Assembly: GCA_963921275.4 (NCBI GenBank)
Contig: OZ001293.3
Location: forward strand, 32,001-96,000
DNA: 64,000 nt
Direction of reading: 5' to 3'
Source: an uncultured Hormoscilla sp.
GTDB lineage: Bacteria > Cyanobacteriota > Cyanobacteriia > Cyanobacteriales > Desertifilaceae
How positions within the stretch are numbered: the stretch's first letter is position 1; each line of letters starts with the position of its first letter. The notes beneath the pieces were generated by a model. It saw only the letters and a program-made list of their open reading frames with translations. It was not told where the DNA came from and ran no database searches. The position numbers were made by a program, and so were the translations under genes. Of the stretch, positions 4,636-57,319 are shown in pieces.

Positions 4636-6640
4636 ATGACCGATTTTTCCGAAACGGTAGAACCGCCCGACCCGAAAAACAACCAGACCCTTGACCAGTT
4701 AATGATGCACCGGTGTATCGAACTCGCTCATCGGGCTTGGGGACGGACAGCTCCCAATCCCTTGGTGGGTTGTGTAATATGTAAAGATGGTCAGATAATC
4801 TCAGAAGGCTTTCATCCCCAGGCAGGGGAACCCCATGCCGAAGTGTTTGCCTTACGGGATGCTGGAGAACATGCCCGGGAGGCAACAGTCTATGTGAACC
4901 TGGAACCTTGCAATCACTACGGACGCACGCCTCCCTGTACGGAAGCTTTGATTGCTGCTGGAGTCAGTAAAGTGGTAGTGGGCATGGTTGACCCCGATCG
5001 CCGAGTATCTGGAACCGGCATAGAAAGGTTACGTGCCGCTGGCATTCAGGTCCTAGTGGGTGTAGAAGAGGATGCTTGCCAGCAGCTGAATGAGGCATTT
5101 ATCCATCGGATTCTTTACCAGCGTCCCTTTGGGATTCTAAAATATGCCATGACCCTGGACGGCAAGATTGCGACAACCCAGGGTCACAGTACCTGGGTGA
5201 CAGGGGCGGAAGCGAGAAAATGGGTGCATCGGTTGCGATCGGCTAGCGATGCGGTTATAGTTGGCGGCAATACGGTGCGTCAGGATAACCCCCAACTGAC
5301 AACCCATGGGGTGAGCGATCGCAATCCTTTGCGGGTAGTAATGTCTCGGCAGCTGGACTTGCCCGCAGCACCGCAGCTGTGGGATACGGCAGTAGCTCCG
5401 ACTGTAGTCTTTACTACATTAGGGGCCAATCGGGATATGCAGCAGAAGCTACAAAAACAGGGAGTCGAAGTTGTAGAACTTTCCGATCTCAGCCCAACTC
5501 AGGTAATGGCCCATCTCTATGAACGGAATTTCCTCTCAGTTTTGTGGGAATGTGGGGGTGCCCTGGCCGCCCAGGCGATCACGGACGGTGCAGTGCAAAA
5601 GATTGCCGCCTTCATCGCCCCGAAAATCATTGGCGGCACAGGGGCCCCCTCGCCAGTAGGAGATTTGGGGTTCACGGCCATGACTCAAGCTTTACCCTTA
5701 AGGAGACTGTGCGATTCGTTCTAGCCTAACGTGCTCAAACACGGAACGCTAGCCCGGTTTCATTAGCCGGGAACTCTGACCGCATGGGGGTTAAATTCCC
5801 CTCCCCCCAGGTACGGGGGTGACACCGGTCCTCGGTGCTACGAAGCGACATCATCGTGGTGCTAAGCGAGGACTCAAATGTAGGATAACTGGCAGCCTAA
5901 GCCGGTGACGCCGCTAGGAAAGATATCCAAGGTTAGAGCAGGCAAACATGTGCAAGCCTCGTTATAAGGAACCAGCGAAATAAGGCTATATGCGCTGGCC
6001 TAAAAAGGAAATGGTAGCTAGTATTAGTTTTAGACTCTGGCTAATATAGTACTCAAATAGCTCCCGGGGTATAGTGTGGACCTAAAGGTATCGCGAAATG
6101 TTGTTAGGGAACGAAGTAACCTCTCGTGTGCTGTCCATCAGGACAAGTTAGATGTTAAGCGCAAGCCACGGGGGGAGGGATGGCCCAAGAAGCGAATGCC
6201 CGGGGTAATTCCTGGGATAACATCTACAGTAATGTAGATGATGCTGGGTAGCCAGCGCTGACGTGGGTCGGTGATACTAGGAAGCTGCTGGAATGGGTAA
6301 TCCTAAAAAGCCACGGAACTAATCCGAAACGCAAGTGGAGGATAAGGTATGGATAACTGGTAAAACTGACTTGAAAATGGTGATACTAACGGTTATCAGA
6401 ACAACCACTCGCTAAACCAGGAAAGGGAAGAAAAGACAGGCGGCAAGGGCTAACGGAAGTAATTCCTATTAAGTCTACCTATGAAAAGGGCCTAGTACCC
6501 AGTAGCCGGATGCGGTGAAAATCGCAAGTCCGGTTCCGAAAGGGAGGGTCGGGAAGCGATTCCCGGCTCGACCCCATCCGCAACTCACCCAGCTAGGGAA
6601 CGATTTTTTGCTTACAGGCTACTTACAATTAAAACAATGA
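4636..6640 (+). CDS. ribD: RibD deaminase/reductase, split by a sense-orientation group II intron (exons 4636-5708 and 6580-6640)
   Basis: Motifs HAE and NLEPCNHYGRTPPC plus a reductase domain. Splicing gives ..ALPLRR-L-QLTQLGNDFLLTGYLQLKQ*, a normal RibD C-terminus. Confidence 0.92.
5709..6579 (+). ncRNA. ORF-less group II intron, family A copy 1 (871 nt)
   Basis: 5' GTGCG; D5 AGCCGGATGCGGTGAAAATCGCAAGTCCGGTT; D6 hairpin with bulged A; EBS1 AGACTC in a stem-loop (6032-6037); ends ACCCCATCC. Confidence 0.95.
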
Positions 6641-6661
6641 AGAAAGACTAACAACAGTTTT

Positions 6662-7363
6662 ATGCTTGAATTCGTGGTATACAGCTTATTTATCGGTAGC
6701 CTGGGTCTAGAAGCTCTGTTAACTAGCAACTGGTTGTACAGGCGGCAACTATTACTTGCCAAGCAAAATCAGGTGGAGGAGGAAGAAGTTTTGAAGGAAT
6801 ATGAATCTAATATGGCCCAACAACCGCAGCCGCAAGTCAACGGCTCCGCCAAGAAGGCCCATTATACTGCTCCCCAAACCGGAGACTGGGAATATAAGAT
6901 TGTCCGCGCCAGCAGCGACCTATTTCGAGACCCCAAGGTTTTTCACAAGTTATGTCTAGAAGAGGCAAGGGCGGGCTGGGTATTGCTAGAAAAACTCGAT
7001 AATCAGCGGGTACGCTTTCAGCGGCCTCGGGCATCCTGTCAGGCGATCGCACCTGGACCTCGACCTATCGATCCTTATCGCTGCCACTACGGCCCGAGTA
7101 TGAAACTGCCCAAATGGGTAGGCCCGATCGCCATAGCGACTTGTATAATTATTCCCGCCTACGTGGGTTACAGTATCATGTTAGGGATCATAGAATCGCG
7201 CAGGCAGCCCAGCATCCCATCTGGCGATACACCCCAGTCTCTTCCGGAAGCACCACCCACGGTTAAAGGCAGTCCCCAGTCGGACAGGAGCTTGGTGACT
7301 GGTGCTGATGGAAGACCAGGCAGGGTTTCACCTAGTCTGTACGATGTCCTCCCGGAGCGCTAA
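6662..7363 (+). CDS. Conserved cyanobacterial hypothetical membrane protein
   Basis: 233-aa ORF with WEYKIVRA..GWVLLEKLD motifs and two hydrophobic segments. Confidence 0.75.
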   Translation: MLEFVVYSLFIGSLGLEALLTSNWLYRRQLLLAKQNQVEEEEVLKEYESNMAQQPQPQVNGSAKKAHYTAPQTGDWEYKIVRASSDLFRDPKVFHKLCLEEARAGWVLLEKLDNQRVRFQRPRASCQAIAPGPRPIDPYRCHYGPSMKLPKWVGPIAIATCIIIPAYVGYSIMLGIIESRRQPSIPSGDTPQSLPEAPPTVKGSPQSDRSLVTGADGRPGRVSPSLYDVLPER

Positions 7364-7389
7364 TCGCACAAAAGGGAGGACATCGCCGA

Positions 7390-8172
7390 TCAATCAAGAA
7401 TTTGGGACAAGAACTTCTGGGTGCGCTCCTCCTTGGGGTTGTTGAAAAATTCATCTGGCGTCCTATCTTCTACTAACAGACCATCCGCCATCAGCACGAT
7501 CCGATCGGCCACTTCCCGAGCAAACCCTACTTCATGGGTGACGACTACCATTGTCATCCCTGAAGTGGCCAGGGTGCGCATTACGTCCAATACTTCCCGC
7601 ACCATCTCTGGGTCCAGTGCTGAGGTGGGTTCGTCAAATAGCATGATCTTCGGTTCCATTGCTAAGGCCCGGGCGATCGCCACCCGTTGCTGCTGACCCC
7701 CCGACAGTTGACCCGGATACTTCTGCGCCTGCTCCAGGATCCCAACCCTTTCCAACAGCTGCATGGCCTTCTCTTCGGCATTGGCCTGGGGCCAGCGACG
7801 CACCCAGATCGGAGCCAAGGTGACATTTTGCAGGATCGTCAGATGCGGAAACAGGTTAAACTGCTGAAACACCATCCCTACTTCCCGCCTAATCTCTTCT
7901 ATATTCTTCAGGTCGTGGGATAGGTTAATCCCATCTATGACTATAGAACCCTTCTGGAATTCCTCCAAAGCATTAAAGGTGCGGATAAAGGTCGATTTCC
8001 CAGAACCACTCGGTCCCATGATTACTACTACTTCCCCCCGCCGCACCGATAAACTGACACCCCTCAGGGCGTGAAATTTATTACTGTACCATTTGTGAAC
8101 ATCAGTGGCGACGATCGCCTCGAATGAGTCATTCTGTAATTTTGTCTGTAATTGCTTTGTTGGTTGTGTCAT
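7390..8172 (-). CDS. Polar amino acid ABC transporter ATP-binding protein (AapP/GlnQ-like)
   Basis: Walker [10 protein letters not shown], signature LSGGQQQR, Walker B region [10 protein letters not shown]. Confidence 0.93.
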
Positions 8173-8641
8173 TTTCCTGTTATACTACTTAGGGTGAGGG
8201 TTGCTTAGCATCATATTTGAGAATTGAGCAATTGTTAATTGACTACTGACTACGCAACGTTGCACAACGACGGTATGATAAGGGTTGAAAATTGTTAATT
8301 GTAAATAGTAAATTAAAATTTTCATAAATAGCCATATATTATGTATGAACGAACAATTTTCAACCTCTTAATTGCTATCATCCCAAAAATGTGCAACGCC
8401 CGCAACAATAGTTAATCATAGCCATCTAAATTACGCTTTTGTTCTTGAAAACGTTGTATCCGCGCCTGAATGTCCGTGACTGTGTTCCGAATTTCTCTCC
8501 CAGTTTTTTATGTCGAATAAGATGCCATTTTGGATAATTTCACTAATAGCTGCTGTCATGGTCGATTGTTAATTTAGGTTGAATTTTGCTGATCATGGTA
8601 GCATTTAATGGTAGGGTTTCGTACCTCAACCCTACCTACAA

Positions 8642-9856
8642 CTAGCGATCGCCTGTATTGAGTTGTTTTTCTAAGCGGCGACTAGCCAGAGACATAGCAT
8701 AGCAAAAACACCAGTAAAGTATCCCTACGAATAAGTATACCTCGGCATAGCGCCCCAAAAACTTGGGATTGGCTAAAACTGAGTTACTGATGCCCAGCAA
8801 TTCTACCAGTCCTACCAGGGCTAGCAATGTTGTATCTTGAAACAAACCGATGAACTGACCCACGATCGCGGGAATGACCGCTTTGAGGGCCTGGAGTAAG
8901 ACAATCAGTCCTAAGACCAAGGGTGTATTTAATCCTAAAGCTTTCGCCGCTTCTGTTTGACCTCTAGGAACTGATTGTAGTCCCGCCCGGACATTTTCCG
9001 CCAGATAAGCTGAACTGAACATCGTCAGACCAACGATCGCCCTTAGTACCCGATCCGGTCGCATACCCTCTGGCAGGAACAATGGGATCATAATTTGTCC
9101 CATAAACAGAATTGAGATCAGGGGTACTGCCCGGACGAATTCAATATATAGAACGGAAAACCCGCGCACTACTGGCAGGGTACTTTGTCTTCCTAATGCT
9201 AGCAGAACGCCAATGGGAAAGGACAATACTATGCTGGTCACTGCCATGAAAACAGTCAGAATCAGACCCCCCCATTTACTGGTGGATACCTCTTTTAATC
9301 CCAAACCTCCAGCTATCAACCACAGGACAATAAAGAATGCCCCAAACCAGGCCAATGATAGCCAACAACCCGGTATCTTTTTCCCTACTTGCTGACCTCC
9401 CCAAGCAGTTCCGACTAAGACCCCCACCATTAACAGCAGTAACAGGCGATAAATAATTGGGACTGGCACTAGCATTAATGCCCCAGAAGTTACCCCGACA
9501 GCAATTAATATTTTCCCACCGAACAGTTTCCGGCTTTTTCTTGCCAATACTCCCCAAGACAGTCCTGATAACAGGACTGCGATCGCCAAGATCGCCCAGA
9601 TGCGCCAATAGTCATCCTGAGGATATCTACCCACAAAAAATAAGGCCAGGTTGGCTTGCAGTACCCGCCACTGGGCGATCGTCGTAGCCCAAACCAGAAA
9701 TCCTTTGATAGTTTGGAAGAATATGCCGCAGAGTATTACTGTCAGCAGACCGTTGTACCAGGTACTAAATAGGTTTTTCTGTATCCACTTTACCGGATCT
9801 ACCTTGAGTTCTGGTGGCGCTTCTATATTAGTATTTTTGGGATTAATGGTTGTCAT
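8642..9856 (-). CDS. Amino acid ABC transporter permease (AapM/NatH-like)
   Basis: Multiple TM segments; AYLAENVRAGLQSVPRGQTEAAKALG EAA motif. Confidence 0.9.
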   Translation of the reverse strand: MTTINPKNTNIEAPPELKVDPVKWIQKNLFSTWYNGLLTVILCGIFFQTIKGFLVWATTIAQWRVLQANLALFFVGRYPQDDYWRIWAILAIAVLLSGLSWGVLARKSRKLFGGKILIAVGVTSGALMLVPVPIIYRLLLLLMVGVLVGTAWGGQQVGKKIPGCWLSLAWFGAFFIVLWLIAGGLGLKEVSTSKWGGLILTVFMAVTSIVLSFPIGVLLALGRQSTLPVVRGFSVLYIEFVRAVPLISILFMGQIMIPLFLPEGMRPDRVLRAIVGLTMFSSAYLAENVRAGLQSVPRGQTEAAKALGLNTPLVLGLIVLLQALKAVIPAIVGQFIGLFQDTTLLALVGLVELLGISNSVLANPKFLGRYAEVYLFVGILYWCFCYAMSLASRRLEKQLNTGDR

Positions 9857-10049
9857 ACTTCATCCGGTGTGGTCAAAACCAGTTGGTTGGTAAAGTAAAA
9901 AGCGTTCGGGGGGTCCTCTCGTGGGGGCCAGAAACCCGGTTTCTTCATCAACTCTCGCTTTTCCTCTCGTTCCCAGGTTCTAACTGGGAACGGTCTTCTG
10001 ATTTTTCTGAGGTTTGTAGTGAGGACTTCCGTCCTCACTACAAACCTCA

Positions 10050-10169
10050 GTTGCTCAAGAGCACCCCTGCTACCAGAATAAACACTAATACTGCTAGGAC
10101 TTGCAGTGCTATACGCCAGAACCGATCGTCTCGCCATAGAGGGATTTTATCATCTTTGTTCCTGGTCAT
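10050..10169 (-). pseudogene. N-terminal remnant of the second permease (AapQ/NatG-like); the rest is deleted
   Basis: Reads MTRNKDDKIPLWRDDRFWRIALQVLAVLVFILVAGVLLSN and then runs into a hairpin repeat at 10000-10050. Confidence 0.75.
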
Positions 10170-10186
10170 CTTGCTAATTGCTAACT

Positions 10187-12095
10187 TTAGTGGAAAGGAG
10201 GAGAATAAAGCAAACCTCCACGAGTCCGTGCGATTCGTTCTAGCCTAACGTGGTCAAACACGGAACGCTAGCCCGGTTTCATTAGCCGGGAACTCTGACC
10301 GCATGGGGGTTAAATTCCCCTCCCCCCAGGTACGGGGGTGACACCGGTCCTCGGTGCTACGAAGCGACATCATCGTGGTGCTAAGCGAGGACTCAAATGT
10401 AGGATAACTGGCAGCCTAAGCCGGTGACGCCGCTAGGAAAGATATCCAAGGTTAGAGCAGGCAAACATGTGCAAGCCTCGTTATAAGGAACCAGCGAAAT
10501 AAGGCTATATGCGCTGGCCTAAAAAGGAAATGGTAGCTAGTATTAGTTTTAGACTCTGGCTAATATAGTACTCAAATAGCTCCCGGGGTATAGTGTGGAC
10601 CTAAAGGTATCGCGAAATGTTGTTAGGGAACGAAGTAACCTCTCGTGTGCTGTCCATCAGGACAAGTTAGATGTTAAGCGCAAGCCACGGGGGGAGGGAT
10701 GGCCCAAGAAGCGAATGCCCGGGGTAATTCCTGGGATAACATCTACAGTAATGTAGATGATGCTGGGTAGCCAGCGCTGACGTGGGTCGGTGATACTAGG
10801 AAGCTGCTGGAATGAGTAATCCTAAAAAGCCACGGAACTAATCCGAAACGCAAGTGGAGGATAAGGTATGGATAACTGGTAAAACTGACTTGAAAATGGT
10901 GATACTAACGGTTATCAGAACAACCACTCGCTAAACCAGGAAAGGGAAGAAAAGACAGGCGGCAAGGGCTAACGGAAGTAATTCCTATTAAGTCTACCTA
11001 TGAAAAGGGCCTAGTACCCAGTAGCCGGATGCGGTGAAAATCGCAAGTCCGGTTCCTCAAGGGAGGGTCGGGAAGCGATTCCCGGCTCGACCCCATCCAG
11101 AGGTCATTTTGACCCCGAGGTAGTTTTAATTCTGAATTCTTCCCCAGGTTGCGATCGTATACTTGCCCGTAGTTTCCTACATGCTTGACTATTCTAGCAG
11201 TAAAATCATTACTCAAACCCAAACCCTCTCCTAAATTCCCTTCTACTCCCAAGAAACGCCCGATCGTCGGGTTATCCGATCTTTTCATCATCTCCACATT
11301 AGCACTTGTGATACCCAACTCCTCTGCTTCTATCAAACTGTAGGTCACCCATTTCACCACGTCAAACCAGGCCGAGTCATTATTAATTGTCGCTGGTCCC
11401 AGAGGTTCCTTGGACATAGTTACATCCAAAATTATATGATCTTGGGGATTGGGAAAGTTACTGCGGCGGGCTACTAATGCTGATTTATCTGCCGTCACTC
11501 CCTCACAGCGTCCTTCTAAGTATGCTGCAAAGGTAGCATCTGCCTGCTGATATGCGATCGGGGTAAAATTCACTCCTGCTTGGCGCATTTTATCGGTTAA
11601 ATTCAGTTCCGTGGTCGTCCCCGTCCCCACACAGATAGAAGTGCCTTGCATATCTGGCAAAGACCTGATGCCACTATCTTTGCGCACCATCATCCCCTGA
11701 CCGTCGTAGAAAGTCGTGGGGGCAAATTCCATGCCCACCAAACTATCGCGACCGAGAGTCCAGGTAGTATTGCGAGAGAGGACATCCACCTCGCCACCGT
11801 TGAGGGCCGTAAACCGTTCGCTAGCTTCCAGGTTGCGGTACTCTACTGCTTCTGGGTTGTCGAACAAGGCCGCCGCCACTGCCCGACAGACCTCCACATC
11901 TATACCAGAATATTTACCGTTTGAGTCTACAAAGCTAAATCCTGGTAAAGTGCCGCTGACGCCACAGATCAGCTTGCCCCGTTTCTTGACTATATCCAAG
12001 CGACTTTGCTTCTGCTCTCGCAACTCGCTACCACAACCCATTATTGGTGCAATAGCAAGTAGGGTGGCTAGTAGCAGAGGTTTCCATCTAGGCAT
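10187..12095 (-). pseudogene. Amino acid ABC substrate-binding lipoprotein (AapJ/NatF-like), paralog 1, disrupted by an antisense group II intron
   Basis: ..GQNDLW|TRGGLLYSPPFH* is restored by removing 10228-11098 and matches the adjacent paralog. Confidence 0.88.
10228..11098 (+). ncRNA. ORF-less group II intron, family A copy 2 (antisense to host gene)
   Basis: Nearly identical to 5709-6579; the empty site CGAGTCC|AGAGGTC is visible in the paralog at about 12157-12170. Confidence 0.95.
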
Positions 12096-12122
12096 CGGTT
12101 TTGTCCTTACTCTCTCATAGGA

Positions 12123-13159
12123 TTAGCGGAAAGGAGGAGAATAAAGTAGACCCCCACGAGTCCAGAGGTCATTTTGACCCCGATCGAGCTTGAACTGGGA
12201 TTTTTGCCCTAGGTTCCGCTCGTATATTTCCCCATAGTTTCCCACATGCTTGATTATCCTGACCGTAAAATCATTTGTCAAACCCAAACCCTCTCCCAAA
12301 GCCCCTTCTACCCCCAAAAAACGCCGGATCGTCGGGTTATCCGATTGCTTCATCTGTTCTACATTAGAGCTTGTAATGCCTAACTCTTCCGCTTCAAAGC
12401 GTAGGTTGCCCACTTGACCACGTCAAACCAGGCCGAGTCATTATTCACCGTCACCGGTCCAAGAGGTTCCTTAGACATAGTCACATCCATCAGGATATGC
12501 TCCGAAGGATTGGGCAGGGTACTGCGGCGGGCGATCAATTTAGATTTATCCGATGTCATGCCCTCACAGCGCCCTTCCGCATATGCTGCATAGGCCGGGT
12601 CAGCTTTTTGAAATGTCAGGGTCTCGGCCTTTACCCCTGCTTGGCGCATCTTGTCGGTTAAGTTCAGTTCTGTAGTTGTCCCTGCTTCCACACAAACTGA
12701 TTTCCCTGCAAAATCTTTCAAAGTCCTAATCCGGCTGTTTTTGCCCACCATCATCCCCTGGCCGTCGTAGAAGGTAGTCGGCGCAAACTCCATCCCCACC
12801 GAGGTGTCTCGACTAATGGTCCAGGTAGTATTGCGAGAGAGCATATCTACTTCGCCGCCGTTCAGGGCCGTAAATCTCTCTGTCGCGTCCAGGTTCCGGT
12901 ACTCTACTGCTTCTGGGTCGTCGAACAGGGCGGCTGCCACTGCTTTACAGACATCCACATCTAAACCGGAGTATTTACCGTTCTCATCGACAAAGCTAAA
13001 TCCGGGGATACCACCGTCCACTCCACAGTTTAGCTTGCCACGGCTCTTGACTGCATCTAGGCGACTTTGTTTTTGTTGTGTGTTATCAGTCTCTGCACAG
13101 CCCATTACTGTTCCCACGGCAAGCAGGGTGGCTAGTAGCATATTTTTCCATCTTCCCAT
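12123..13159 (-). pseudogene. Amino acid ABC substrate-binding lipoprotein, paralog 2, frameshifted near 12400
   Basis: ORFs 12380-13243 and 12123-12413 are consecutive halves (..WATYAL / EAEELGIT..). Confidence 0.85.
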
Positions 13160-13838: not shown

Positions 13839-13911
13839 TGGAGAATACCGGACTCGAACCGGTTGCCTCTGCGGTGCGATCGCAGCGCTCTACCAACTGA
13901 GCTAATTCCCC
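13839..13911 (-). tRNA. trnA: tRNA-Ala(CGC)
   Basis: 73-nt cloverleaf GGGGAATTAGCTCAGTTGGTAGAGCG CTGCG-ATCGCAC-CGCAG ..GGTTCGAGTCC..TTCTCCA. Confidence 0.96.
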
Positions 13912-31605: not shown

Positions 31606-33067
31606 ATGAAACAGAAATCATTATGGAAACTGTTAACTGGGGCAATGGCGATCGGCTTTGTCATAGTCCTAGTTTGGGCACCAAGGACAGAGTCGAAAAT
31701 ACCACATGCTTTAAGAGAAAACCCAACAGCAAGTCCGCCAGCAGCGGAGGCGGTGGAAATTGCCCAAATCTTTGGCAGAACCCGTTACCAGAAACTCGCG
31801 GAAGCAGACAGATTTATTAAACTGGGAAATCTTGGGGAAGCGGAAAGACTCCAGCGGCAAGTAAAACCGGCATTTGCTGCTGCTAGTCCGCCACCAAAGC
31901 CGGTTTTGGAGATTTCTGATGCCTCTCCAGCGGCTCGGGTATACTGGCGAGAGGCGAATGCGGGTCTACAGCAAGGTCTGGAAAGCAAAACCTTCGTGCC
32001 CCTAGAGCTGTTGACCGAGAATTATCCGGACTTTATCCCCGGTCATTTGCTGCTGGCGTCAGCTGCTCAAAAATATGGACAGCCCGAAAGAGCTATTGCC
32101 GCCTTGGAACGAGCAACATCTCTGTATCCGGACAACACAGAACTGCTGGATCGGAAATCGCTTTGCTGGCAGAGCAAGACCAGTGGTTAGAAGCTGCCAT
32201 TGCAGCCCGTCAATTTGCCCTCATCTATCCGGAGGATCCCCAGGCGGCTAAGTACGATCGCCTGGCAGACAAGCATTTCCAAAAGTACAGATCCCAGATC
32301 GAGCAAGATTTGTTCGGCTTGGGAATAGCACATGTGGTAACCTGCCAAGTCATCGGCGACTGTTTGAGAGGAGAGCTAATTGAGCTACTGCTACAGGGAG
32401 AAGCAGCTACGGGTAAGGAGTTCGCAGAAAGCTTAAAAAAAGATCTCACTTTGGTAGAAGACCCGGCTGTGGTAGAGTACGTGAATGAAATCGGTCAGAA
32501 ACTAGCGAAGTTTATGGGGCGAGATGAGTTCGAGTACGAATTTTATGTGGTCGAAGACTCCACTCCTAATGCCTTCGCTCTACCGGGCGGCAAGATATTT
32601 ATACATTCGGGGCTCATGAAGTTAATGGGGTAGAATTATACCAGAGGGTGATGAGGGCACCAGAGCCGACAAGAACTCAACCAGCATCAACCCCGCGTCG
32701 GAATCAACCAAGATCGGGGCCTGTAGCTCTGAACATAGTGCAAAAGAAGGATGATGTCCAAATCAGCATCAACAGAGCCAACGTGAATGCTACGGGTGGG
32801 TTTACTGTAGATCTGGTGATTAAAAATGACAGTAATGACAAATTTGGGTTTGTGCCTTTGTTTGTACAAGTGCTTGACGACAGTGGCAACAGGGTTTCAT
32901 CCCGGTTCTTATTAACAGCAGGAGAAGATGCTTTTGTTCCACCAGGTGGCAGTTTGAGAAGGACTTTGCTGATCGTAGGCGCCCGTTGGCAAACTGGCAG
33001 CCAAGATTTGACTGTGGTGGTTAAAGAATCTACACCCGGAGGTAGAGTTTTCCGCATCCCATTGTGA
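31606..33067 (+). pseudogene. TPR plus M48 metallopeptidase, frameshifted with the HExxH region deleted
   Basis: TPR-like helices and PNAFALPGGKIFIHSGL followed by a stop; a C-terminal beta domain lies in 32648-33067. Confidence 0.75.
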
Positions 33068-38823: not shown

Positions 38824-40592
38824 TCAATCTATGTCTAATTTGGGAGGTGGTATGTGCTTCATCTCCCAAACTTTGAGGACGATGAGATATTCGTAAAAGG
38901 TTTGCAAAGTACACCAGGCCAGACCTGGAGACCCATTCAGCCAGCCGCCTAACAGAAAATACATATAAACAAAGCGTACTATTGGTCTGAAGGGTAAACG
39001 CGGGGACAGGTCTTTGAGGGCGTGACGTCTTTCCACTCCCGACTTGCCGCCAAACAAGTCTCGCCAATTAATTTTGCCTGCGGACATCTGACGCAGGGTT
39101 TCAGCAGCTTCATCGGTGGAGTAGCGGTTGTGCTTTTCCACCCATCGGCTCAATCCTTTGCTACAGGTGTAGTGGGGATAGGTTTCTTTGATAAAGCCTG
39201 TCGGTCCGTCACATTCTTCCCGTTCCGTATGACCGTAGTCCCTATACCAAACAAAGCCGACTCGCAGCTGGTAACGGGGATACTGGGTGCTGTGCGAATC
39301 CACCGATTCATAAATATCACCCGTTCAGCGACGTAGTAGCCCACAAAGTCCGATGTTTTCGTCGCCTCCACACATTCAGCAAACAACTCCGCTGTCATCC
39401 GTTCATCTGCTTCTAGGATATAAACCCATTCATGTTTAGCCGGGACTTCCTTTAGCATCCAGGTGCGCTGACGTCCGTGACTTTCAAAGGCGTGCGGTCG
39501 GGGTCGAGCTGTCCCTCGCGGGACAATCCTCCCATTCGGAACCTGAAGAGCGACTTTCACCGCACACGGCTACTGGTTGGTAAACCCTTGTCACGGGTAG
39601 GATTACTAGGGATTACTCCCGTTGTCCCTTGCCCTATGAAATATAGCCCCTTTATGGTCAGTCATGAACTAGTTGAGTACCTAACTCCGGAAGGTTTACG
39701 GGGGGGAACTAGAAAACCACTATGACCGTTCTTTACTAACAGGTGCCCGTATGGGGCCTCTAAATTTTTACCCGGTTAGGATTTAAGTCCATCATTACTA
39801 CCTAGTGTTGCCACTGGTTAAGCACGTTTAGAGGGCTACTATCTCCTAGAGCTTTTTACCATATCCGTCCTACGTCTGCATATCCACAGGCATTACCCCG
39901 GGCATTAGCTTCTTAGGACCTCCCTCCCCACGCGGGCATGCGCTAGGCGCTGCGTGCACGCTACGCGGACGCACATCTGACTTGTCCATCTGGACAGCAC
40001 CGCTCTTGTCCGGAACGTTCCCTGGTATCATTTCACGAGGCTTTTAGGTCTCCCCTATACACCGGCAGTCATTTCGGGTACGATATCAGTGACGTGCAAC
40101 CACTGATACGCGGACTGCGTGCGCATTTTGCACCAAGCGTGTCAGCCTCTTTTCGCTTGTTTAAGATGACGATGCTTACAGGGATTCGCTTGCTCTAACC
40201 ATGAGCCTCTTTCCGATCGCGCAGCGTGGCGCAGCCATGCGGCGTCGGTCTCTGGGCTGAGACCTTATCCTACATTTGTCCTCGGGAGGCACCACGGTAA
40301 TGTTACTCCGCAGCACCTCACGCGGTCACCCCCGTACCTGGGGGAAGGGGAATTGAACCCCCATGATGACCAGAGTTGCTGGTATTAACCAGCCCGGCGA
40401 TCGCCATATTTCAGACTTACGCCAAAACGATTCGCACTGCACGATCTTTACTGGATAGCGCTGAGCAATCTCGATGGTGCGATCGCTACTTAATGAGTCC
40501 ACCACAACCACATCATCAGATAGTAACGCTGATTCAATACAAGCGGCTATATCAATTTCTTCGTTATAGGTGAGGATATAAATCGAGAACAT
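38824..40592 (-). pseudogene. GT2 glycosyltransferase split by a sense group II intron, also frameshifted near 39293
   Basis: MFSIYILTYNEE..YPVKIVQ|HAFESHGRQRTW..EADE after removing 39496-40437. Confidence 0.85.
39496..40437 (-). ncRNA. ORF-less group II intron, family B (942 nt), with a degenerate D5
   Basis: 5' GTGCGAATCGTT; EBS1 TGCACG is perfectly complementary to the exon end CGTGCA; shares blocks with family A; ends ACCCCGACC. Confidence 0.92.
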
Positions 40593-40766
40593 TCCAACTA
40601 GGTGTGAATATATTATGCTTGCTTGATTGGCAGAATGACAATTTTTAATTGACAATTTTTAATTGACAACTTCCTGACGTCCTGTCCGGAGCAACTGATT
40701 ATTTCCTATCTCTCTCAACCAGACACTTGAGGGGGATAGGAAAATTTTATGCTTCGATTCTGCTAT

Positions 40767-47446: not shown

Positions 47447-47465
47447 CCGATTTTTCCGGAACGGT

Positions 47466-50278: not shown

Positions 50279-50514
50279 TGATGTCTCATTGGCTTGACTG
50301 CTGCTTTCAATATATCTCATCTCTTGCGCTATTGCCTGGTTTCCCTGTTCTCCCCTCTGGAGTCTGTCCGACGGGTTGCCACTCACAGCAGGGCAACCAG
50401 AGTACCGGTTCCACCCCTGCCCGAATCGGGCCACGGCTTGCATGACAATAATCCTAGCACTCAATATATAATAATGGAGAACTTGTGTTGCGCCCATACC
50501 CAGATTCTGATATT

Positions 50515-50946
50515 CTAGCTTTCCGATGGTGGATGAATACCAGCCATCACCAATAGGCGACGCAAGTTAACAACACCTGTTCTGTTCAAACGGAGAGATT
50601 GAACTGAGGCTCGACCACAAGGTGTTTTTCCCATGACATAAGTGAAATCATCGCTCCAGCTAAAATGCTCTGTCCCAACTTGTTGACGAGGGTTAAACAG
50701 AGCCACTTCTTCATTTGTTTCTGGATCGACATCGTGGGTTTTGGCATGTTTGTAGCTGTTACAACCAACACAAGCCCAGGCTAAATTGTCTAATCTGGTT
50801 TCACCACCTGCTGCACGGGGGATTATATGGTCAACAGTGAAACTCTTAAGAGCAAAGTCACCAGGACTGCGGCAATACTCGCAGTAATTTTTGGCTCGGA
50901 TGGAAACCGCTCGTCTAATGGCAGGTGTAATATTATCGGATGGCAT
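50515..50946 (-). CDS. HNH endonuclease
   Basis: CEYC, VDHIIPRAAGG, NLAWACVGCN and LFNPR. Confidence 0.92.
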   Translation of the reverse strand: MPSDNITPAIRRAVSIRAKNYCEYCRSPGDFALKSFTVDHIIPRAAGGETRLDNLAWACVGCNSYKHAKTHDVDPETNEEVALFNPRQQVGTEHFSWSDDFTYVMGKTPCGRASVQSLRLNRTGVVNLRRLLVMAGIHPPSES

Positions 50947-50951
50947 TGGCT

Positions 50952-51329
50952 TTATTCAGATTTTAACTCGCTCATCAAAGTCACCAGATCGACCTTGCGA
51001 ATTTTCGCCAATTCCATCAATGCTGCGACTCTTTGCACATTTTGATGTTCTACCCGTTCTATGGCTGTTAATAATTCATTATATTCTGCCTCACTTAACT
51101 CGCCCCATTCATTGCGATCGTCCAATTCCTCCAGTCGAGCTTCTTCTTCTGGTGGTAGTCGGCGCTGAACTATTTCCAGCAACTCTCTTTCTTCAAGGGA
51201 GGGTGTTTCTTCTCCTGTTTTACGATCGTTCCCGAACAAAGATTCGAGCAATTCAACCGCTTCAACTAATCTTTCTTGTGGCAAATTTTCCAATAACTCG
51301 ATAGCTCTTTGGCGAATTTCCGTTTCCAT
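50952..51329 (-). CDS. Acidic helical partner of the HNH nuclease (antitoxin-like)
   Basis: 125-aa ORF 5 bp upstream of HNH; LSEAEYNELL..RVAALMELAKIR. Confidence 0.75.
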   Translation of the reverse strand: METEIRQRAIELLENLPQERLVEAVELLESLFGNDRKTGEETPSLEERELLEIVQRRLPPEEEARLEELDDRNEWGELSEAEYNELLTAIERVEHQNVQRVAALMELAKIRKVDLVTLMSELKSE

Positions 51330-51359
51330 ATTTTCTGCCCTGTCTCCTTCTATTCTCTT

Positions 51360-51461
51360 CAGGTCTTAGTTCCCTTGCAATATCTAGGTTTCCTGTCCCC
51401 TGGGGCGAGCGATCGGGGTTTTAATCAGTTCCAGATAGGCAGAGGGGCGTTGTTCGTTCAT
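51360..51461 (-). pseudogene. N-terminal remnant of a TPR/CHAT gene
   Basis: MNEQRPSAYLELI..GQET*ILQGN*DL resembles cyanobacterial TPR-CHAT N-termini. Confidence 0.55.
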
Positions 51462-51648
51462 GGTTGATGTCTCAATAGGGTAGACTGCTGCTTCAAGTAT
51501 ATGACACATTTTGTGCTATTGCCTGGTGGAGCAGTTCACCGACCAGTCGGCTAGGAGGCGCATTCCCACCCACAGGATGGCAACCAGAGTACCGGTTCCA
51601 CCCGTGGGCCAAATAGCCTCCATCAGGTGATTCCCCGGAGGTTGGCCC

Positions 51649-51860
51649 AAAAGCAGCACTAGGTTTTCCCAAAAGCAGCACTAGGGTTGGTGGAAAAGCA
51701 GCACTAGGTTATCGGGAGCAACAGCACTATGTTTTATGGAAAAACAGCACTATGTTTTATGGAGTAACAGCACTATCTTATTTGGAGTAACAGCACTATG
51801 TTTTATGGAGTAACAGCACTATCTTATTTGGAGTAACAGCACTATCTTATTGGGAACAGC
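51649..51860. repeat. 22-23-bp tandem repeat array (core CAGCACTA, about 9 units)
   Basis: Units grade from AAAAGCAGCACTAGG to AGTAACAGCACTATC. Confidence 0.85.
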
Positions 51861-51974
51861 GCCTGGTGGCGGCCACTGCACCAGGATAACCTCCCCTGGC
51901 GCAAAGCCCGAGATCGCGGCTTGCATGACTTTCCTCAGGGCACACAACATATAATGAGGGACAAACTCTGTTGA

Positions 51975-52072
51975 GGCTAGGGCCCAACTACTCCGAAGCT
52001 AGGGGCCAACTACTCTGAAGCGGAAGGCCAACTACTCTGAAGCGGAAGGCTAACTGCTCTGAAGCGGAAGGC
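51975..52072. repeat. About 21-bp tandem repeat (GAAGCGGAAGGCCAACTACTCT x4-5)
   Basis: Read directly from the sequence. Confidence 0.75.
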
Positions 52073-52173
52073 ACCCTCTAAACAAGGGATAGGGCGATTT
52101 TACCGCTCTCATGACTAACTCGAACTTAGTGACGAGCAAGTTTAGACGAGACTGGTGGCCCGAGATGTATATA

Positions 52174-53185
52174 ACTCAAGTTACGACCTATAAAAATTGG
52201 ATACAAAAAGCTATGATAAAGAGAATTATTTTCAACTCTAATCCCTTAGATGTAACAGCATGAATTGACTTGGGAAACAAATTTGTGATTCGACTAAAAC
52301 AGGTTTCAACTTGTTTTCTTGTTACTTTTTGTATATATTCAAAACAAGAAGATTCTTTTCTTTTTGAGTTTTTTTTTCGCAAAGGTTTTAACATTATACT
52401 TGACGACTCTTTTAGTAAATCCTCTAATTGATAATCATTATAAGCTTTATCTCCATAAACTATTGAATTTGATGGTAAGTCAAAGCCAAAAGATTGCAAA
52501 ACTTTAACATCATTATAACTACCAGGATCTAGATAAAATTCTATTGGCTTTCCATTTTTGTTTACCAACATATGAACTCTTAATCCATAAAAATAACGTT
52601 TTTTACTGGCAATATACCCTCGATATTCTTCCTTGTTATAAATTTGGCATCTATCAATCCTAATATTATCACATACTGGCACCGGGAAACTATCAAGAAT
52701 ATATTCTTGACCCGGATTGAGCTCTTTAAATGTTTGAGCTATAACTTGGAAAAAAAACATCCAAATTAGTTCGTCAATATTGTGTAATCGACGATTGAAC
52801 CTACTTTTACTTAACAGATTTTTTATATACTTGTGTTGGACCATAAATTGACAAGAGCGATCGTGGTGTCCTCCGAAAAAATATGCAGCAACTAATCCGA
52901 CTGTCATCACTTCGGCATTGTTCATTTTTACTTGTGGATCTTCTTTTATATTTAACGCTTTTAGTAGCTCGTCACAAAGAACAAAAATTGTTGTAATCAT
53001 ATCTTCCATCATCTACATCCCCCAGCAATTAACTATTATTTTAGTACATTATAACCTATAAACAGCCAACCCGCCGTCTAGCACAAAAAAAATATAATTT
53101 TGTATCAAAAGCTACGAAATATCCCAAATATCTGTAAAGTCTAAGTGGGTAATTCATATTTTTTTTAATAGGTCGCAACTTAGGT
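52174..53185 (-). mobile_element. IS982-family element, 1012 bp
   Basis: TIRs ACTCAAGTTACGACCTAT / ACCTAAGTTGCGACCTAT; TSD TATATA. Confidence 0.92.
52188..53012 (-). CDS. IS982 DDE transposase (intact)
   Basis: SRFNRR, LDSFPVPVC, YFYGLRVH, GDKAY and RKQVET. Confidence 0.92.
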   Translation of the reverse strand: MMEDMITTIFVLCDELLKALNIKEDPQVKMNNAEVMTVGLVAAYFFGGHHDRSCQFMVQHKYIKNLLSKSRFNRRLHNIDELIWMFFFQVIAQTFKELNPGQEYILDSFPVPVCDNIRIDRCQIYNKEEYRGYIASKKRYFYGLRVHMLVNKNGKPIEFYLDPGSYNDVKVLQSFGFDLPSNSIVYGDKAYNDYQLEDLLKESSSIMLKPLRKKNSKRKESSCFEYIQKVTRKQVETCFSRITNLFPKSIHAVTSKGLELKIILFIIAFCIQFL

Positions 53186-53742
53186 TATATAGCAGATAAT
53201 TTACCCGTCAGCAGAGAAGGGCGGTCTCCAATCTGTCATGTTAGGACCGGCGATACGTAGGGACGAAGAGGAGACAAGATGCCTCGTGACATGAGCTTCC
53301 TGCTGAGTCTCCTCACAGGACTTGGGATAGCACGATTTGCGACCAGACCAGAAACCGGGGTGTGGTCAAAACCAGTTAGTATGGGATCGTCGGTACTGTA
53401 GTTCTCTACTCTATCAACTAATGCATGACCACACCCTGCGGAATGTGGGATATACTGATCGCTATGCCAAATTGTCTGACGCTCTCAAATAGTTTAACTG
53501 GGCGATCGCCCGACGGTCGAATAACCGAATTGTTGGGTTAAGCCATCCGGTTTCTCCGGCTCCCATGGGTAAGCCCCCCGGTCGCGTACAGATCTTCAAA
53601 AAGCGCAAATCGATCCCGTTCCGGGTATAATCACGAGCAAGTTTGGACGACCGTTGACTGGTGGCCCCAGATGTATATAGCAGATAATCAGTTCCGAGTA
53701 TGTACGACCGCGATCGCACATACTACTGCAAAAGGAAAGGAG

Positions 53743-53770
53743 TTGACATGGGCACCCGATCTGGTATAGT
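53743..53770 (+). promoter_or_regulatory. Sigma70-type promoter
   Basis: TTGACA-N16-TATAGT with an extended TG. Confidence 0.55.
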
Positions 53771-53801
53771 GGAAGAGACAAAAGATGTCATTAAACATCA
53801 A

Positions 53802-53886
53802 GGCTTGCAGTCGGTATAAGACCGACTCATACCGAGTTCCCTGGCTCCCGCCTGGGAACGCGGGGGTTTGAACCCCCTGCGGGCCA
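53802..53886 (+). ncRNA. tRNA-like RNA or degenerate tRNA
   Basis: 7-bp acceptor GGCTTGC/GCGGGCC+A stacked on T-arm GGGGG-TTTGAAC-CCCCT; the central arms are non-canonical. Confidence 0.5.
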
Positions 53887-53921
53887 ACAGCGAAGTGAAG
53901 GAATTACAGGACAAGAAATGA

Positions 53922-54446
53922 TTGGTCAATAGGAGGTATGATAGGAGGTATGAACTGTTTGAGACAGTAGAGATACATGCCCCCAATGGTCAAATAATCC
54001 TCTGCGCTCAAAAGGATTCTGTTTTAGTGCCGATCGCCAAAGTTGCTACTTATGGGATGGGCAAGGTGGCAATGTATCCTGAGTCGGAGTTGCGACAACT
54101 CCAGCAAATGAAACAAAATGATCGCAAGTTGTTCGATCGAAATCCTGGGAATGAACAAAGGTTACGTCATCTGAAAAAGTTAAGGCATAACTACGAACGT
54201 TCTCAATCAATGCTTAAATCATTCATTGCGATCGGCTTTACTGATTCTGATAGTGACATCAATAATATTGTCTACCACTTGCTTAATGTTGGTAAATCAG
54301 TTACAATTGATAATCGGCTAGATTATCCTAGCGACCTAGAAGCACCAAATGGTACTCTCAAGATTAGGAGTACATGGAGGATCCTATCAGATGGGAGGAA
54401 ATATTTATCAACGCTCAATTGTATTCCCAGCAGTAAAGGAGGGTAA
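53922..54446 (+). CDS. Hypothetical protein, possible nuclease-toxin domain
   Basis: Basic 174-aa ORF ending in beta strands (..KIRSTWRILSDGRKYLSTLNCIP), coupled to the next gene. Confidence 0.6.
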   Translation: MVNRRYDRRYELFETVEIHAPNGQIILCAQKDSVLVPIAKVATYGMGKVAMYPESELRQLQQMKQNDRKLFDRNPGNEQRLRHLKKLRHNYERSQSMLKSFIAIGFTDSDSDINNIVYHLLNVGKSVTIDNRLDYPSDLEAPNGTLKIRSTWRILSDGRKYLSTLNCIPSSKGG

Positions 54447-54449
54447 GTT

Positions 54450-55568
54450 ATGAAAATTGATGAATTAATGATTCTTACAGACGATCGGATAGATTATAGC
54501 AGTTTATCGTCCGATACTCTCCAGGAATTGGCTTTGGGAGAAGAGTTATTTATGGCAACTTCTGCTTTGGCAGAATTAGCAACTAGAAATAGCTCTCTCG
54601 CATGCGATGTTGCGGGGGATATATTGTCCCACTCAAAGGGCGATCGCTATCTGCAAGCGACGGCGATCGAGACATTGTTTGGGCTTGACAAACGGCGGGC
54701 GATCGAGTATATGATGGAAGCAGTAGCAGAAGAGGAAGATGGTTATATATTAACTGCGATGGTGGAGCTGGCGCTCGAAAATAGATATGATTTTCAGTCA
54801 GGTATGGGAGGGAGAGTGTTTCGCTTGCTATGGTCGAAAATCAAACATACAGACTCTATTGATCGCACGCGACTAGCTTCACTCGTGCGGGGTATAGAAG
54901 CAGCAAAAAAATTGCAGCAGGATCGGATAAATTACGGAATAGAATACGTGGATATCTATGTAGATGTAGAGGGAGAATGGTGGGAAACAGACGAAAATTA
55001 CTCGGAGGAAGAAGAGAGGAAAGAAGAGATAATCTACTTTCTCGAAAGTGACGAGGAAGTCGCCGTGAGGGTAAGAAAACGGCTAAAAGCAATGTGGATA
55101 GCAGAAATAGCAGCGGAGTTAGAAAAAAGCCTCCGCCTTTCGGAAGCGGAAAGGAATTATGCCGTGAAAAACCTCTTAGCGTCTGGAGTCCAGAAGACAG
55201 GGGAGGAAAGCAAGACTGAGGAAATCGAATTACTGGATTTAGCAGCCGAATTGCTGGAGAAATTAGATGAAATATTGACAGAGTTGGCGCCAAATTCCGA
55301 CGAAGTAGCGAAGAAAGTACGAGAACGGCTGGAACAAGCCATGTCGATTTCAGAAATAGTAGCGCAGTTGGAAAAAAACCTCAGCATGTCAGACAGCGAG
55401 GAGAGAACTTGGTTAACGAAAGATATATTCCTAGGGACTGTTGCTGGAGGGGCGATCGTCCGCTCCGAAAGGGTTGCAGAAGATGAGGAAATCGAAATAC
55501 TGGATTTAGCAGAAGACTTGCTGGAGAAGTTAGACGAAATTTTCGGCGTTCTCGATACAGAGGAGTAA
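54450..55568 (+). CDS. Very acidic helical protein (HEAT-like N-terminus, duplicated C-terminal repeat), possible immunity protein
   Basis: 372-aa ORF; EEIE(L/I)LDLA(A/E)(E/D)LLEKLDEI occurs twice. Confidence 0.7.
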   Translation: MKIDELMILTDDRIDYSSLSSDTLQELALGEELFMATSALAELATRNSSLACDVAGDILSHSKGDRYLQATAIETLFGLDKRRAIEYMMEAVAEEEDGYILTAMVELALENRYDFQSGMGGRVFRLLWSKIKHTDSIDRTRLASLVRGIEAAKKLQQDRINYGIEYVDIYVDVEGEWWETDENYSEEEERKEEIIYFLESDEEVAVRVRKRLKAMWIAEIAAELEKSLRLSEAERNYAVKNLLASGVQKTGEESKTEEIELLDLAAELLEKLDEILTELAPNSDEVAKKVRERLEQAMSISEIVAQLEKNLSMSDSEERTWLTKDIFLGTVAGGAIVRSERVAEDEEIEILDLAEDLLEKLDEIFGVLDTEE

Positions 55569-55591
55569 ATCAAAAATAAACGGCGAAAAAG

Positions 55592-56218
55592 ATGAGCGAA
55601 AAAACAGACAAAGTACATTGGGTTTACAGTGCCAAGAACAATCAGGAATTAGCCAAAAGGTATGATCAATGGGCGAAGGAATACGAGCAAGATTTGCTGT
55701 CCGAGAACTATACCGGACCGGAACTGGCGGTAGAAGAATTGGTGAAATACGTCTCCAAAAATGCTAATATTTTAGATGTGGGGGCGGGGACGGGGCTAGT
55801 GGGGCAGCTTCTGCACCAGCGGGGCTACCAGAATCTAGAGGCAATGGATCTATCTGCAGGAATGCTGTCAGAAGCGCGGAAAAAGAACCTTTACAAGGAT
55901 CTCCACCAGGGAGTATTGGGCACAGCCCTAGACTTTCCCTCTGATACTTTTGATGCTATTATTAGCGTCGGCACCTTCACCTTGGGCCATGCCCCCAGCA
56001 GAGGTTTTGACGAACTGATCCGCATTACTAAGCCAGGAGGATACATTGTTTTTACCATCCGTCCAGATTATTATGAAAATAGCGATTTCAAAGACAAGCT
56101 GCCGGCACTGGAAGCGGCAGGATCGTGGCAGTTGGTAGAACAAGGAGAACCATTTCTAAATCTCCCGGAAGCCGAACCGGATATTTATTTGCAAGTCTGG
56201 GTATATAAAGTTTGCTAA
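55592..56218 (+). CDS. Class I SAM-dependent methyltransferase, copy 1
   Basis: YDQWAKEYE, ILDVGAGTGLVG and ELIRITKPGG. Confidence 0.9.
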   Translation: MSEKTDKVHWVYSAKNNQELAKRYDQWAKEYEQDLLSENYTGPELAVEELVKYVSKNANILDVGAGTGLVGQLLHQRGYQNLEAMDLSAGMLSEARKKNLYKDLHQGVLGTALDFPSDTFDAIISVGTFTLGHAPSRGFDELIRITKPGGYIVFTIRPDYYENSDFKDKLPALEAAGSWQLVEQGEPFLNLPEAEPDIYLQVWVYKVC

Positions 56219-56250
56219 TTTTTAGTAATTCCATGGAGGAGAGAAAATAA

Positions 56251-56448
56251 ATGCTGAAGCTAGAGGAAAAACATTTAACCCAGAGCGATCTCTTTCTCAC
56301 CCTGGCCGGGAAGCGCTTCCATTACATCTGGTTGTACGATCATTGTTTGTGTCCTCGGTGTCATCATCCCAGTTCGTTTCAGAAAATAAACGATCTGAGC
56401 GACGCCATGGAAATGCCAAAACCAAAATCAGTGCAGTGCCAAGATGAA
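56251..56448 (+). pseudogene. Truncated 5' copy of a gamma-butyrobetaine/TauD-like dioxygenase
   Basis: WLYDHCLCPRCHH zinc motif; ends at the intron and duplication joint. Confidence 0.8.
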
Positions 56449-57319
56449 GGATGGGGTCGAGCCGGGAATCGCTTCCCGATTCTCCCTTGAGGAACCGGAC
56501 TTGCGATTTTCACCGCATCCGGCTACTGGGTACTAGGCCCTTTTCATAGGTAGACTTAATAGGAATTACTTCCGTTAGCCCTTGCCGCCTGTCTTTTCTT
56601 CCCTTTCCTGGTTTAGCGAGTGGTTGTTCTGATAACCGTTAGTATCACCATTTTCAAGTCAGTTTTACCAGTTATCCATACCTTATCCTCCACTTGCGTT
56701 TCGGATTAGTTCCGTGGCTTTTTAGGATTACTCATTCCAGCAGCTTCCTAGTATCACCGACCCACGTCAGCGCTGGCTACCCAGCATCATCTACATTACT
56801 GTAGATGTTATCCCAGGAATTACCCCGGGCATTCGCTTCTTGGGCCATCCCTCCCCCCGTGGCTTGCGCTTAACATCTAACTTGTCCTGATGGACAGCAC
56901 ACGAGAGGTTACTTCGTTCCCTAACAACATTTCGCGATACCTTTAGGTCCACACTATACCCCGGGAGCTATTTGAGTACTATATTAGCCAGAGTCTAAAA
57001 CTAATACTAGCTACCATTTCCTTTTTGGGCCAGCGCATATAGCCTTATTTCGCTGGTTCCTTATAACGAGGCTTGCACATGTTTGCCTGCTCTAACCTTG
57101 GATATCTTTCCTAGCGGCGTCACCGGCTTAGGCTGCCAGTTATCCTACATTTGAGTCCTCGCTTAGCACCACGATGATGTCGCTTCGTAGCACCGAGGAC
57201 CGGTGTCACCCCCGTACCTGGGGGGAGGGGAATTTAACCCCCATGCGGTCAGAGTTCCCGGCTAATGAAACCGGGCTAGCGTTCCGTGTTTGACCACGTT
57301 AGGCTAGAACGAATCGCAC
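56449..57319 (-). ncRNA. ORF-less group II intron, family A copy 3 (antisense to host gene)
   Basis: Reverse complement of 5709-6579 with few changes; the empty site GATGAA|AAACTC is seen at 58291-58302. Confidence 0.95.

Follow-up and report, generated by a model that had tools for sequence, protein, structure and literature searches.

Group II introns lacking open reading frames in an uncultured Hormoscilla end eight nucleotides past a candidate branch-point adenosine

The window analysed here is a stretch of 64,000 nucleotides from an uncultured Hormoscilla sp. (NCBI GenBank assembly GCA_963921275.4, contig OZ001293.3, forward-strand positions 32,001 to 96,000; G000:C1:32001-96000 in our numbering), whose genome comprises 7.03 Mb with 47% GC. 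Custom profile scans of the window found exactly four group II intron 5′ ends, at positions 5709, 10228, 57319, and 40437, together with four 3′ modules. All four introns start with GUGCG and end with CC, and no open reading frame (ORF) of 100 or more amino acids lies inside these elements of 871 or 942 nt. Three are copies of one family, F0, the first of which interrupts ribD, and the fourth, in a GT2 gene, belongs to family F4; we refer to this ORF-less type as class 1. Copies 2 and 3 of F0 cannot be spliced from their host mRNAs because they are antisense to their hosts, with copy 2 at the 3′ end of an SBP_bac_3 ORF (10998-12095, − strand) and copy 3 inside a GBBH-like_N paralogue of 58105-58491. 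A preliminary description of this stretch had proposed a mobile, ORF-less lineage that ends in CC instead of the usual A-pyrimidine (AY). As detailed below, DNA boundaries, covariations, and genome-wide frame restoration place the 3′ end of class-1 introns after a four-nucleotide tail that follows domain VI (D6).

First, uninterrupted relatives fix the ends of the window introns. The ribD junction in the window reads ...GGAGACT|GTGCG...ACCCCATCC|GCAACTCACC, and ribD is uninterrupted in four genomes of the same genus (G001-G004; loci L032-L035), of which three read ...CCTTAAGGAGACT|GCAACTCACCCAGC..., with both sides identical, whereas the last has ...CGAAACT|GCAACTC.... Hence the insert spans exactly 5709-6579 (871 nt), CC included; the junction can slide by just 1 nt, a trivial ambiguity that stems from the initial G shared by the intron and exon 2. 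Intron-less GT2 orthologues (G004 and G001; L051 and L052) read ...GATCGTGCA|GCACGCC, which gives an insert of 40437-39496 ending in GACC, and L051 contains a continuous 278-residue ORF across the insertion point. The empty paralogue of the copy-3 site fits solely when CC is counted as intron. Thus, the earlier contention that CC must belong to the intron holds at all four junctions; the copy-2 site, compared by itself with its empty paralogue, leaves a 2-nt ambiguity, since CC closes its 5′ flank as well.

Second, the same 3′ end recurs throughout the genome. Iterated nhmmer profiles found 486 group II intron 5′ ends and 404 complete class-1 3′ modules. Pairing of 5′ and 3′ ends at sizes of 500-1100 nt yielded 333 ORF-less class-1 introns, which clustered into 55 families at 93% identity; the genome also holds about 80 ORF-bearing copies of a second type, class 2. 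Among representatives of the class-1 families, 54/55 start with GUGCG and the remaining one starts with UUGCG. BLAST identified 139 full-length genomic copies of F0 sharing 98.6% identity or more with intron 1, with 3′ ends of CATCC in 138/139 and CATTC in 1/139 and with variable DNA beyond the tail, a regularity far in excess of chance. Head-to-tail tandem copies of F0 meet at the junction CATCC|GTGCG, and therefore CC moves with the element. In every one of the 55 families, the D6 3′ strand CUCGACCCC is followed by a 4-nt tail, and in all multi-copy families conservation ends right after the tail. The tails among the 333 copies are ATCC (138), GACT (94), GACC (63), and TAAT (26), with GGCT, AGCT, AACC, AGCC, and TACT being rarer. 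Thus, the three commonest tails (AUCC, GACU, and GACC), each with C before a final pyrimidine, account for 295/333 copies and the AU-ending UAAU tail for 26/333; every tail closes with a pyrimidine. Within the tail, positions 1 and 3 covary, with A at position 3 accompanied by U at position 1, and C at position 3 by G or A at position 1; this pattern was seen in 54/55 families in the genome and in all 10 tail types at the 44 loci listed in Hormoscilla-type records (L060-L138).

The minimum free energy (MFE) fold of D6 in intron 1 consists of a 3-bp basal GGG/CCC helix, an A/GA internal loop in which GA is unpaired opposite A, a 10-bp helix, and a GCGA loop. In this fold the branch-point candidate A6571 is followed by 8 nt and occupies position −9, as the preliminary description had counted for the bulged adenosine. 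The same spacing from branch adenosine to 3′ splice site, 8 nt composed of CCCC and the 4-nt tail, is present in essentially all 404 complete class-1 3′ ends. GU...AY ends and a spacer of 6 or 7 nt are treated as near-universal properties of group II introns and have been used to argue for homology with spliceosomal GU...AG introns. Typical spacers are 6 nt in bacterial IIA1 and IIB1 introns and 7 nt in others, including IIB2 (PMC9294222), and the accessible portion of this 2022 review gives the Bacillus domain-VII introns and B.a.I2 as the only deviations. Class-1 introns lie outside this range at 8 nt, and the four window copies lack an AY end, each terminating in CC. When compared with the Rfam Intron_gpII model (cut-off 40 bits), as earlier proposed, the three F0 copies match only as far as ...ACCCCAU, two bases before the actual end and without the CC, and the GT2 intron matches with 20.0 bits as far as ...CCCCGAC, one base short of the intron end. 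Hence, the intron ends lie past the AY that Rfam or convention would choose, by 2 nt with the AUCC tail and by 1 nt with GACC. What sets the lineage apart is its 8-nt spacer with the 4-nt tail and not CC, which is one ending among several; the earlier claim of a CC-ending lineage holds for the window copies and does not extend to class 1 as a whole.

Third, the last intron base covaries with the first base of J2/3. A conserved ...GAG-X-GA-U... motif lies between domains II and III (the J2/3 region), where a terminal C in the tail goes with G at X and a terminal U with A at X. In the 48 families with this motif (seven families lack a clean motif, and 12 copies were dropped), X and the last tail base form a Watson-Crick γ-γ′ pair in 319/321 copies, with 197 G-C pairs, 122 A-U pairs, and one G•U and one A•C combination as the exceptions; all 48/48 families show the pairing. 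Shifted registers gave pairing in 197/321 copies at t3, 1/321 at t2, and 39/321 at +1. On a tree built without the γ and γ′ bases, at least five changes were needed for each base, and independent pairs were concordant in 4/4 cases. As a positive control, the homologous J2/3 base of class-2 introns pairs with the last intron base in 34/34 cases (31 A-U and 3 G-C). The preliminary description had placed J2/3 at 6340-6342, a variable part of the D3/D4 region that does not align across families; the alignment puts it at 6178-6180. The bases there are also GGA, so the proposal that a γ guanine matches the terminal cytosine survives the change of position and gains support from the covariation. At the other side of the junction, a candidate exon-binding site 3 (EBS3) in domain I (D1) is complementary to the first exon base, the intron-binding site IBS3, in 45/52 family representatives, or in 46/52 by majority base (U-A 27, A-U 11, and G-C 8); other registers gave at most 26/52. 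Judged by its position, this column would fall in the coordination loop. The 5′-flank consensus, AACCUU...GAGUCU|, directly adjoins GUGCG, and the target consensus for F0 is AACCUUnnnGAGUCU|A.

Finally, removal of the complete tail restores host reading frames. Among 234 unique sites with clean flanks, 58 are preceded by at least 100 open codons on the strand of the intron. The frame remains open for at least 100 codons downstream at 27/58 of these sites when the 4-nt tail is removed, and at 0 sites when either a 3-nt or a 2-nt tail is removed. With a threshold of 60 codons, removal of all four tail bases compared with leaving one or two bases behind gave 11 versus 2 and 0 open frames for ATCC introns (24 sites), 12 versus 2 and 1 for GACT introns (20 sites), and 9 versus 0 and 1 for GACC introns (12 sites).

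Table 1. Positions of introns, ribozyme elements, host exons, and empty sites in the window.
Feature	Positions	Strand	Basis
ribD exon 1, 357 codons + 2 nt	4636..5708	+	Pfam RibD_C 1e-50, dCMP_cyt_deam_1 2.6e-20
Class-1 ORF-less group II intron, family F0 (intron 1), 871 nt, GUGCG...ACCCCAUCC, sense in ribD	5709..6579	+	Exact insertion vs L032-L035; Rfam Intron_gpII 6501-6577 (+), 46.4 bits
EBS2, AAGGUU	5929..5934	+	Complementary to 5′-flank consensus AACCUU, about −15 to −10, 122 F0 sites
EBS1, AGACUC	6032..6037	+	Complementary to 5′-flank consensus GAGUCU, −6 to −1
EBS3 candidate, U, intron nt 364	6072	+	Lone variable D1 column complementary to first exon base
J2/3, GGA, intron nt 470-472 (6178 = γ)	6178..6180	+	Alignment of 55 family representatives
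Domain V, AGC triad, GAAA loop	6504..6535	+	Rfam alignment, MFE fold
Domain VI helix, branch-point A candidate 6571	6542..6574	+	MFE fold
Unpaired 3′ end CAUCC: invariant fourth C (6575) and tail AUCC (6576-6579; 6579 = γ′, last base)	6575..6579	+	MFE fold, family alignment
ribD exon 2: Leu codon completed (CT|G), then QLTQLGNDFLLTGYLQLKQ and stop	6580..6640	+	DNA identical in intron-less orthologues
Second F0 copy, 871 nt	10228..11098	+	Rfam Intron_gpII 11020-11096, 44.4 bits
Empty paralogous site for copy 2, GAGTCC|AGAGGTC	12157..12170	+	Sequence
GT2 exon 2, frame lost further downstream	39153..39495	−	89% identity to orthologue residues 53-125, then frame shift
Class-1 intron, family F4, 942 nt, GUGCGAAUCG...ACCCCGACC, sense in GT2 gene	39496..40437	−	Exact insertion vs L051, L052
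GT2 exon 1, end of frame	40438..40655	−	Pfam Glycos_transf_2 3.6e-07
Third F0 copy, 871 nt, antisense to GBBH-like_N paralogue (Pfam PF06155)	56449..57319	−	Rfam Intron_gpII 56451-56527, 45.1 bits
Empty paralogous site for copy 3, reverse complement GAGTTT|TTCATC	58291..58302	+	Sequence

Based upon these results, the four window elements very probably represent one lineage of ORF-less IIB (IIB2-like) introns with an 8-nt spacer and a helper that acts in trans; the first suggestion, that the lineage is ORF-less and has been mobile, is supported. In the RNA, the D6 3′ strand CUCG-A-CCCC would lead into the 4-nt tail, with the 3′ splice site 8 nt past the branch adenosine. The last tail base (C or U) would serve as γ′ and pair with the first base of J2/3 (G or A), the first exon base would serve as IBS3 and pair with EBS3 of D1, and EBS1 and EBS2 would pair with the 5′ exon. 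Because γ-γ′ and EBS-IBS pairs are present, the splice site would be set by ordinary IIB interactions. On this account the mechanism of selection is canonical, and what is unusual is a spacer one base longer and a penultimate base that is usually C and not A. We infer forward splicing and branching from the DNA products of reverse splicing, and the RNAs would then splice by branching at A6571 and would spread by reverse splicing into DNA.

The putative source of reverse transcriptase/maturase activity in trans is class 2, whose canonical introns encode an RT-X-D-En protein and have an AAU end and a 7-nt spacer. Class-2 introns in this genome have an IIB2-type 5′ start, an ORF of about 590-609 amino acids for this protein, and a D6 that ends ...CUUAGUUUAAU (A-GUUU-AAU), which gives the 7-nt spacer and the canonical AU. 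Among 89 tblastn matches extending into the C-terminal part of the helper, the intron-encoded protein (IEP), the first D6 encountered was of class 2 in 79 cases, of neither type in 10, and of class 1 in 0. Because 0/89 IEP matches precede a class-1 D6, class 1 is wholly ORF-less here. A BLAST comparison of domain IV (D4) between class 1 and class 2 found no similarity.

Several points weigh against assignment of the window elements to an active, trans-assisted IIB2-like lineage. The independent-pairs test on γ-γ′ is underpowered (p = 0.125). Class-1 introns look like IIB2-type group IIB introns by the one criterion of PMC4649490 that the comparison covered, the 5′ motif. Although class 1 most likely borrows the class-2 protein, the identity of this helper is a guess, as little of D4 is shared. 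Intact host frames may be a sign of recent insertion rather than of splicing, the copies being at least 99% identical. Insertions within ORFs (60 or more open codons to either side, 234 sites) number 50 in the sense and 22 in the antisense orientation, and many copies cannot be excised from host mRNA because of these 22 antisense insertions. Families F2, F3, F4 (which includes the GT2 intron), and F10 have mispairs in the lower helix of domain V (window 39496-39580, − strand, for the GT2 intron), and some of these families have an altered D6 basal GGG; they may be dead ribozymes. Among the public runs found, none is an RNA-seq run of this organism. The sole RNA run listed is a coral metatranscriptome with 0.05 of the sampled words, in which one contig from a relative, about 90% identical, bridges 5709 to 6630 via 50 other letters; the contig thus represents an intron-less ribD, with a junction that is not fixed to the base. 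The other runs compared with the window contained only the repeat or the source genome.

If the boundaries are right and the copies are nevertheless mostly non-splicing relics, the unusual 3′ end would have no ongoing role in gene expression. This alternative draws on the antisense insertions, the mispaired domain V of some families, and the negative outcome of the RNA-run search just described, and also on a frameshift in the GT2 host at about 39290-39300 (− strand), where orthologue residues 53-125 lie in one frame and residues 120-278 in another, so that this gene may be dead. We nonetheless consider it improbable. Domains V and VI are intact in F0, and its 139 copies of at least 98.6% identity imply very recent, ribozyme-dependent insertion; domain V with its AGC triad scores 44.4-46.4 bits in the three F0 copies of the window, compared with 20.0 bits and two mispairs in the GT2 copy. 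Moreover, the interrupted ribD is the only full-length ribD in the genome, the two other matches being weak (E 4e-7 or worse), and within ORFs sense insertions exceed antisense insertions by about 2 to 1. Families F2, F3, F4, and F10 still comprise 3-16 copies each at distinct EBS-matched sites; their members may be dead copies kept alike by gene conversion, or the variant may be tolerated.

A second alternative holds that CC is exon sequence, that the introns end canonically in AU or AC, and that homing prefers C at positions +1 and +2. The Rfam alignments, which include F0 only to ...ACCCCAU and the GT2 copy only to ...CCCCGAC, are what this model expects, a fixed EBS3 would predict an invariant +1 base, and copy 2 is undecided by itself because its 5′ flank ends in CC too. 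However, CC is absent from the empty ribD and GT2 orthologues and from the empty copy-3 paralogue, tandem copies retain it between units, frames reopen for 100 or more codons at 0/58 sites if the exon retains one or two tail bases, and GACC and GACU families differ at the fourth tail base in a manner that covaries with J2/3. We therefore regard this model as very improbable, and at the DNA level it is refuted. A 5′ splice site 2 nt upstream of GUGCG, paired with a canonical 3′ end, would leave the excised length and reading frame unchanged, and shifted 5′ sites are documented for C.te.I1 and some fungal rRNA introns (PMC4424553), but it deserves almost no credence, as it would give AGA-CC-GCA in ribD where orthologues have AGA-CT-GCA, fails at copy 3 (flank ...GAGTTT) and at GT2, conflicts with a GAGUCU consensus that adjoins GUGCG and pairs with EBS1, and is refuted by orthologous DNA.

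For the preferred assignment of class 1 to an ORF-less IIB2-like lineage, the closest known relatives are the cyanobacterial IIB2 introns (chloroplast-like class 2), represented by Tr.e.I7 of Trichodesmium and by the class-2 introns of this genome. These share with class 1 the 5′ sequence GUGCGAUUC, a D1 that closes with GGAACGAAGUAA, the J2/3 motif X-G-A-U in which X is γ, exon recognition by EBS1, EBS2, and EBS3, and an AGC-type domain V. The 5′ sequence serves as an IIB2 marker (PMC4649490) and is matched by GUGCGAUUCG in F0 and by GUGCGAAUCG in the GT2 copy; over domains I-IV, Rfam gave only a sub-threshold match to group-II-D1D4-2 (22 bits against a cut-off of 36). IIB2 introns have a reported spacer of 7 nt (PMC9294222), as do the class-2 introns here, whereas class 1 has 8 nt (A-CCCC-NNNN), mostly a penultimate C, and no ORF.

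TeI3-type introns of Thermosynechococcus elongatus resemble class 1 in that ORF-less derivatives outnumber ORF-bearing introns, families are distinguished by diverged EBS sequences, and copies insert into other introns (Mohr, Ghanem & Lambowitz 2010, PMC2882425). Mobilisation in trans was demonstrated for TeI3 (PMC2882425) and is probable for class 1. TeI3-type introns belong to IIB1 (PMC8643678), however, a subgroup whose bacterial members have spacers of 6 nt (PMC9294222) in contrast to the 8 nt of class 1. A 6-nt form, ...CUACCCGAC with an AC end, is present in a 2.6-Mb cyanobacterial genome (G163). T. elongatus reportedly carries 28 intron copies, compared with at least 333 in the Hormoscilla genome. 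Two other systems also use 3′ splice sites downstream of the expected position. In B.a.I2 of Bacillus anthracis, an alternative 3′ splice site lies 4 nt downstream, and, as in class 1, γ-γ′ and EBS3-IBS3 can set a downstream site without a fixed distance from D6 (PMC4424553, PMC9294222); B.a.I2 is a single intron with two alternative sites, whereas the entire class-1 lineage has a single site, fixed at 8 nt. In class B introns that carry a domain VII extension (B.c.I4 and relatives), the 3′ site likewise lies downstream of the D6-expected position, but domain VII is a structured insertion of 53-70 nt, whereas class 1 has one extra nucleotide and no added structure.

The literature searched, with intron database entries outside its scope, contained no account of this lineage, of an 8-nt spacer, or of group II introns in Hormoscilla, Roseofilum, or Desertifilum. 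The intron load, 486 5′ ends in 7.03 Mb, is extreme; the highest count that we found in accessible portions of publications is 101, for Arthrospira platensis (PMC8919778), and the load here is several times that maximum. A more specific proposal, which we put forward tentatively and think doubtful as it stands, is that class 1 is an undescribed IIB2 sublineage with a rebuilt 3′ end. The unpaired fourth C might allow the GGG/CCCC basal helix of D6 to slip register between the splicing steps, and the penultimate C might pair with the invariant G of J2/3 to form a two-base-pair γ helix that replaces the penultimate-A contact; with a helper in trans, this design would accompany the largest bacterial group II expansion yet seen, with more than 480 5′ ends in 7 Mb.

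Class 1 is a natural lineage of great success that would splice with an 8-nt spacer and a C-pyrimidine terminus, and its dozens of natural variants, together with canonical sister introns in the same cell, offer built-in controls for the roles of the penultimate A and of the spacer in the second splicing step. Annotation by the Rfam D5-D6 model or by the AY rule would put the 3′ boundary 1-2 nt early and then report host genes such as ribD as frameshifted.

The 4-nt-tail D6 also occurs in Hormoscilla metagenome-assembled genomes, where the matches listed include GACC (16), TAAC (12), ATCC (5), and seven further tail types at no fewer than 44 loci. Among these matches, Hormoscilla relatives show UAAC and UGAC tails as well, and single records of Coleofasciculus, Floridaenema, Phormidesmis, and Prochloron contain the same D6. 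These pattern scans of genome contigs produce many chance matches in GC-rich genomes and show presence only. A D5-D6 BLAST of 401 cyanobacterial genomes scored two candidates per genome, mostly D5 alone, and is unusable for distribution. A public run of another organism yielded an 885-nt contig with 4 differences from F0, whose match spans window positions 5702-6579 and ends exactly at 6579; the F0 element is therefore also present outside this genome.

F0 also inserts into or next to itself. The tandem arrays, with no exon between units, comprise three copies at G000:C1:5447656-5450268 and two copies at C1:824934-826675, an arrangement consistent with recurrent insertion at a single 5′ exon, the resident intron supplying its G as the +1 base. 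The site of self-insertion corresponds to window position 6476|6477 (intron nt 768|769), ...UUAAGUCU|ACCUAUG, just upstream of domain V. At least five F0-in-F0 twintrons of 1741-1742 nt are present, for example at G000:C1:1326652 and 5180973, and the site in the window itself is empty. Other Rfam matches in the window are a CRISPR-DR28 repeat at 61575-61598 (+ strand, 36.6 bits) and a tRNA at 13839-13911 (− strand, 65.2 bits).

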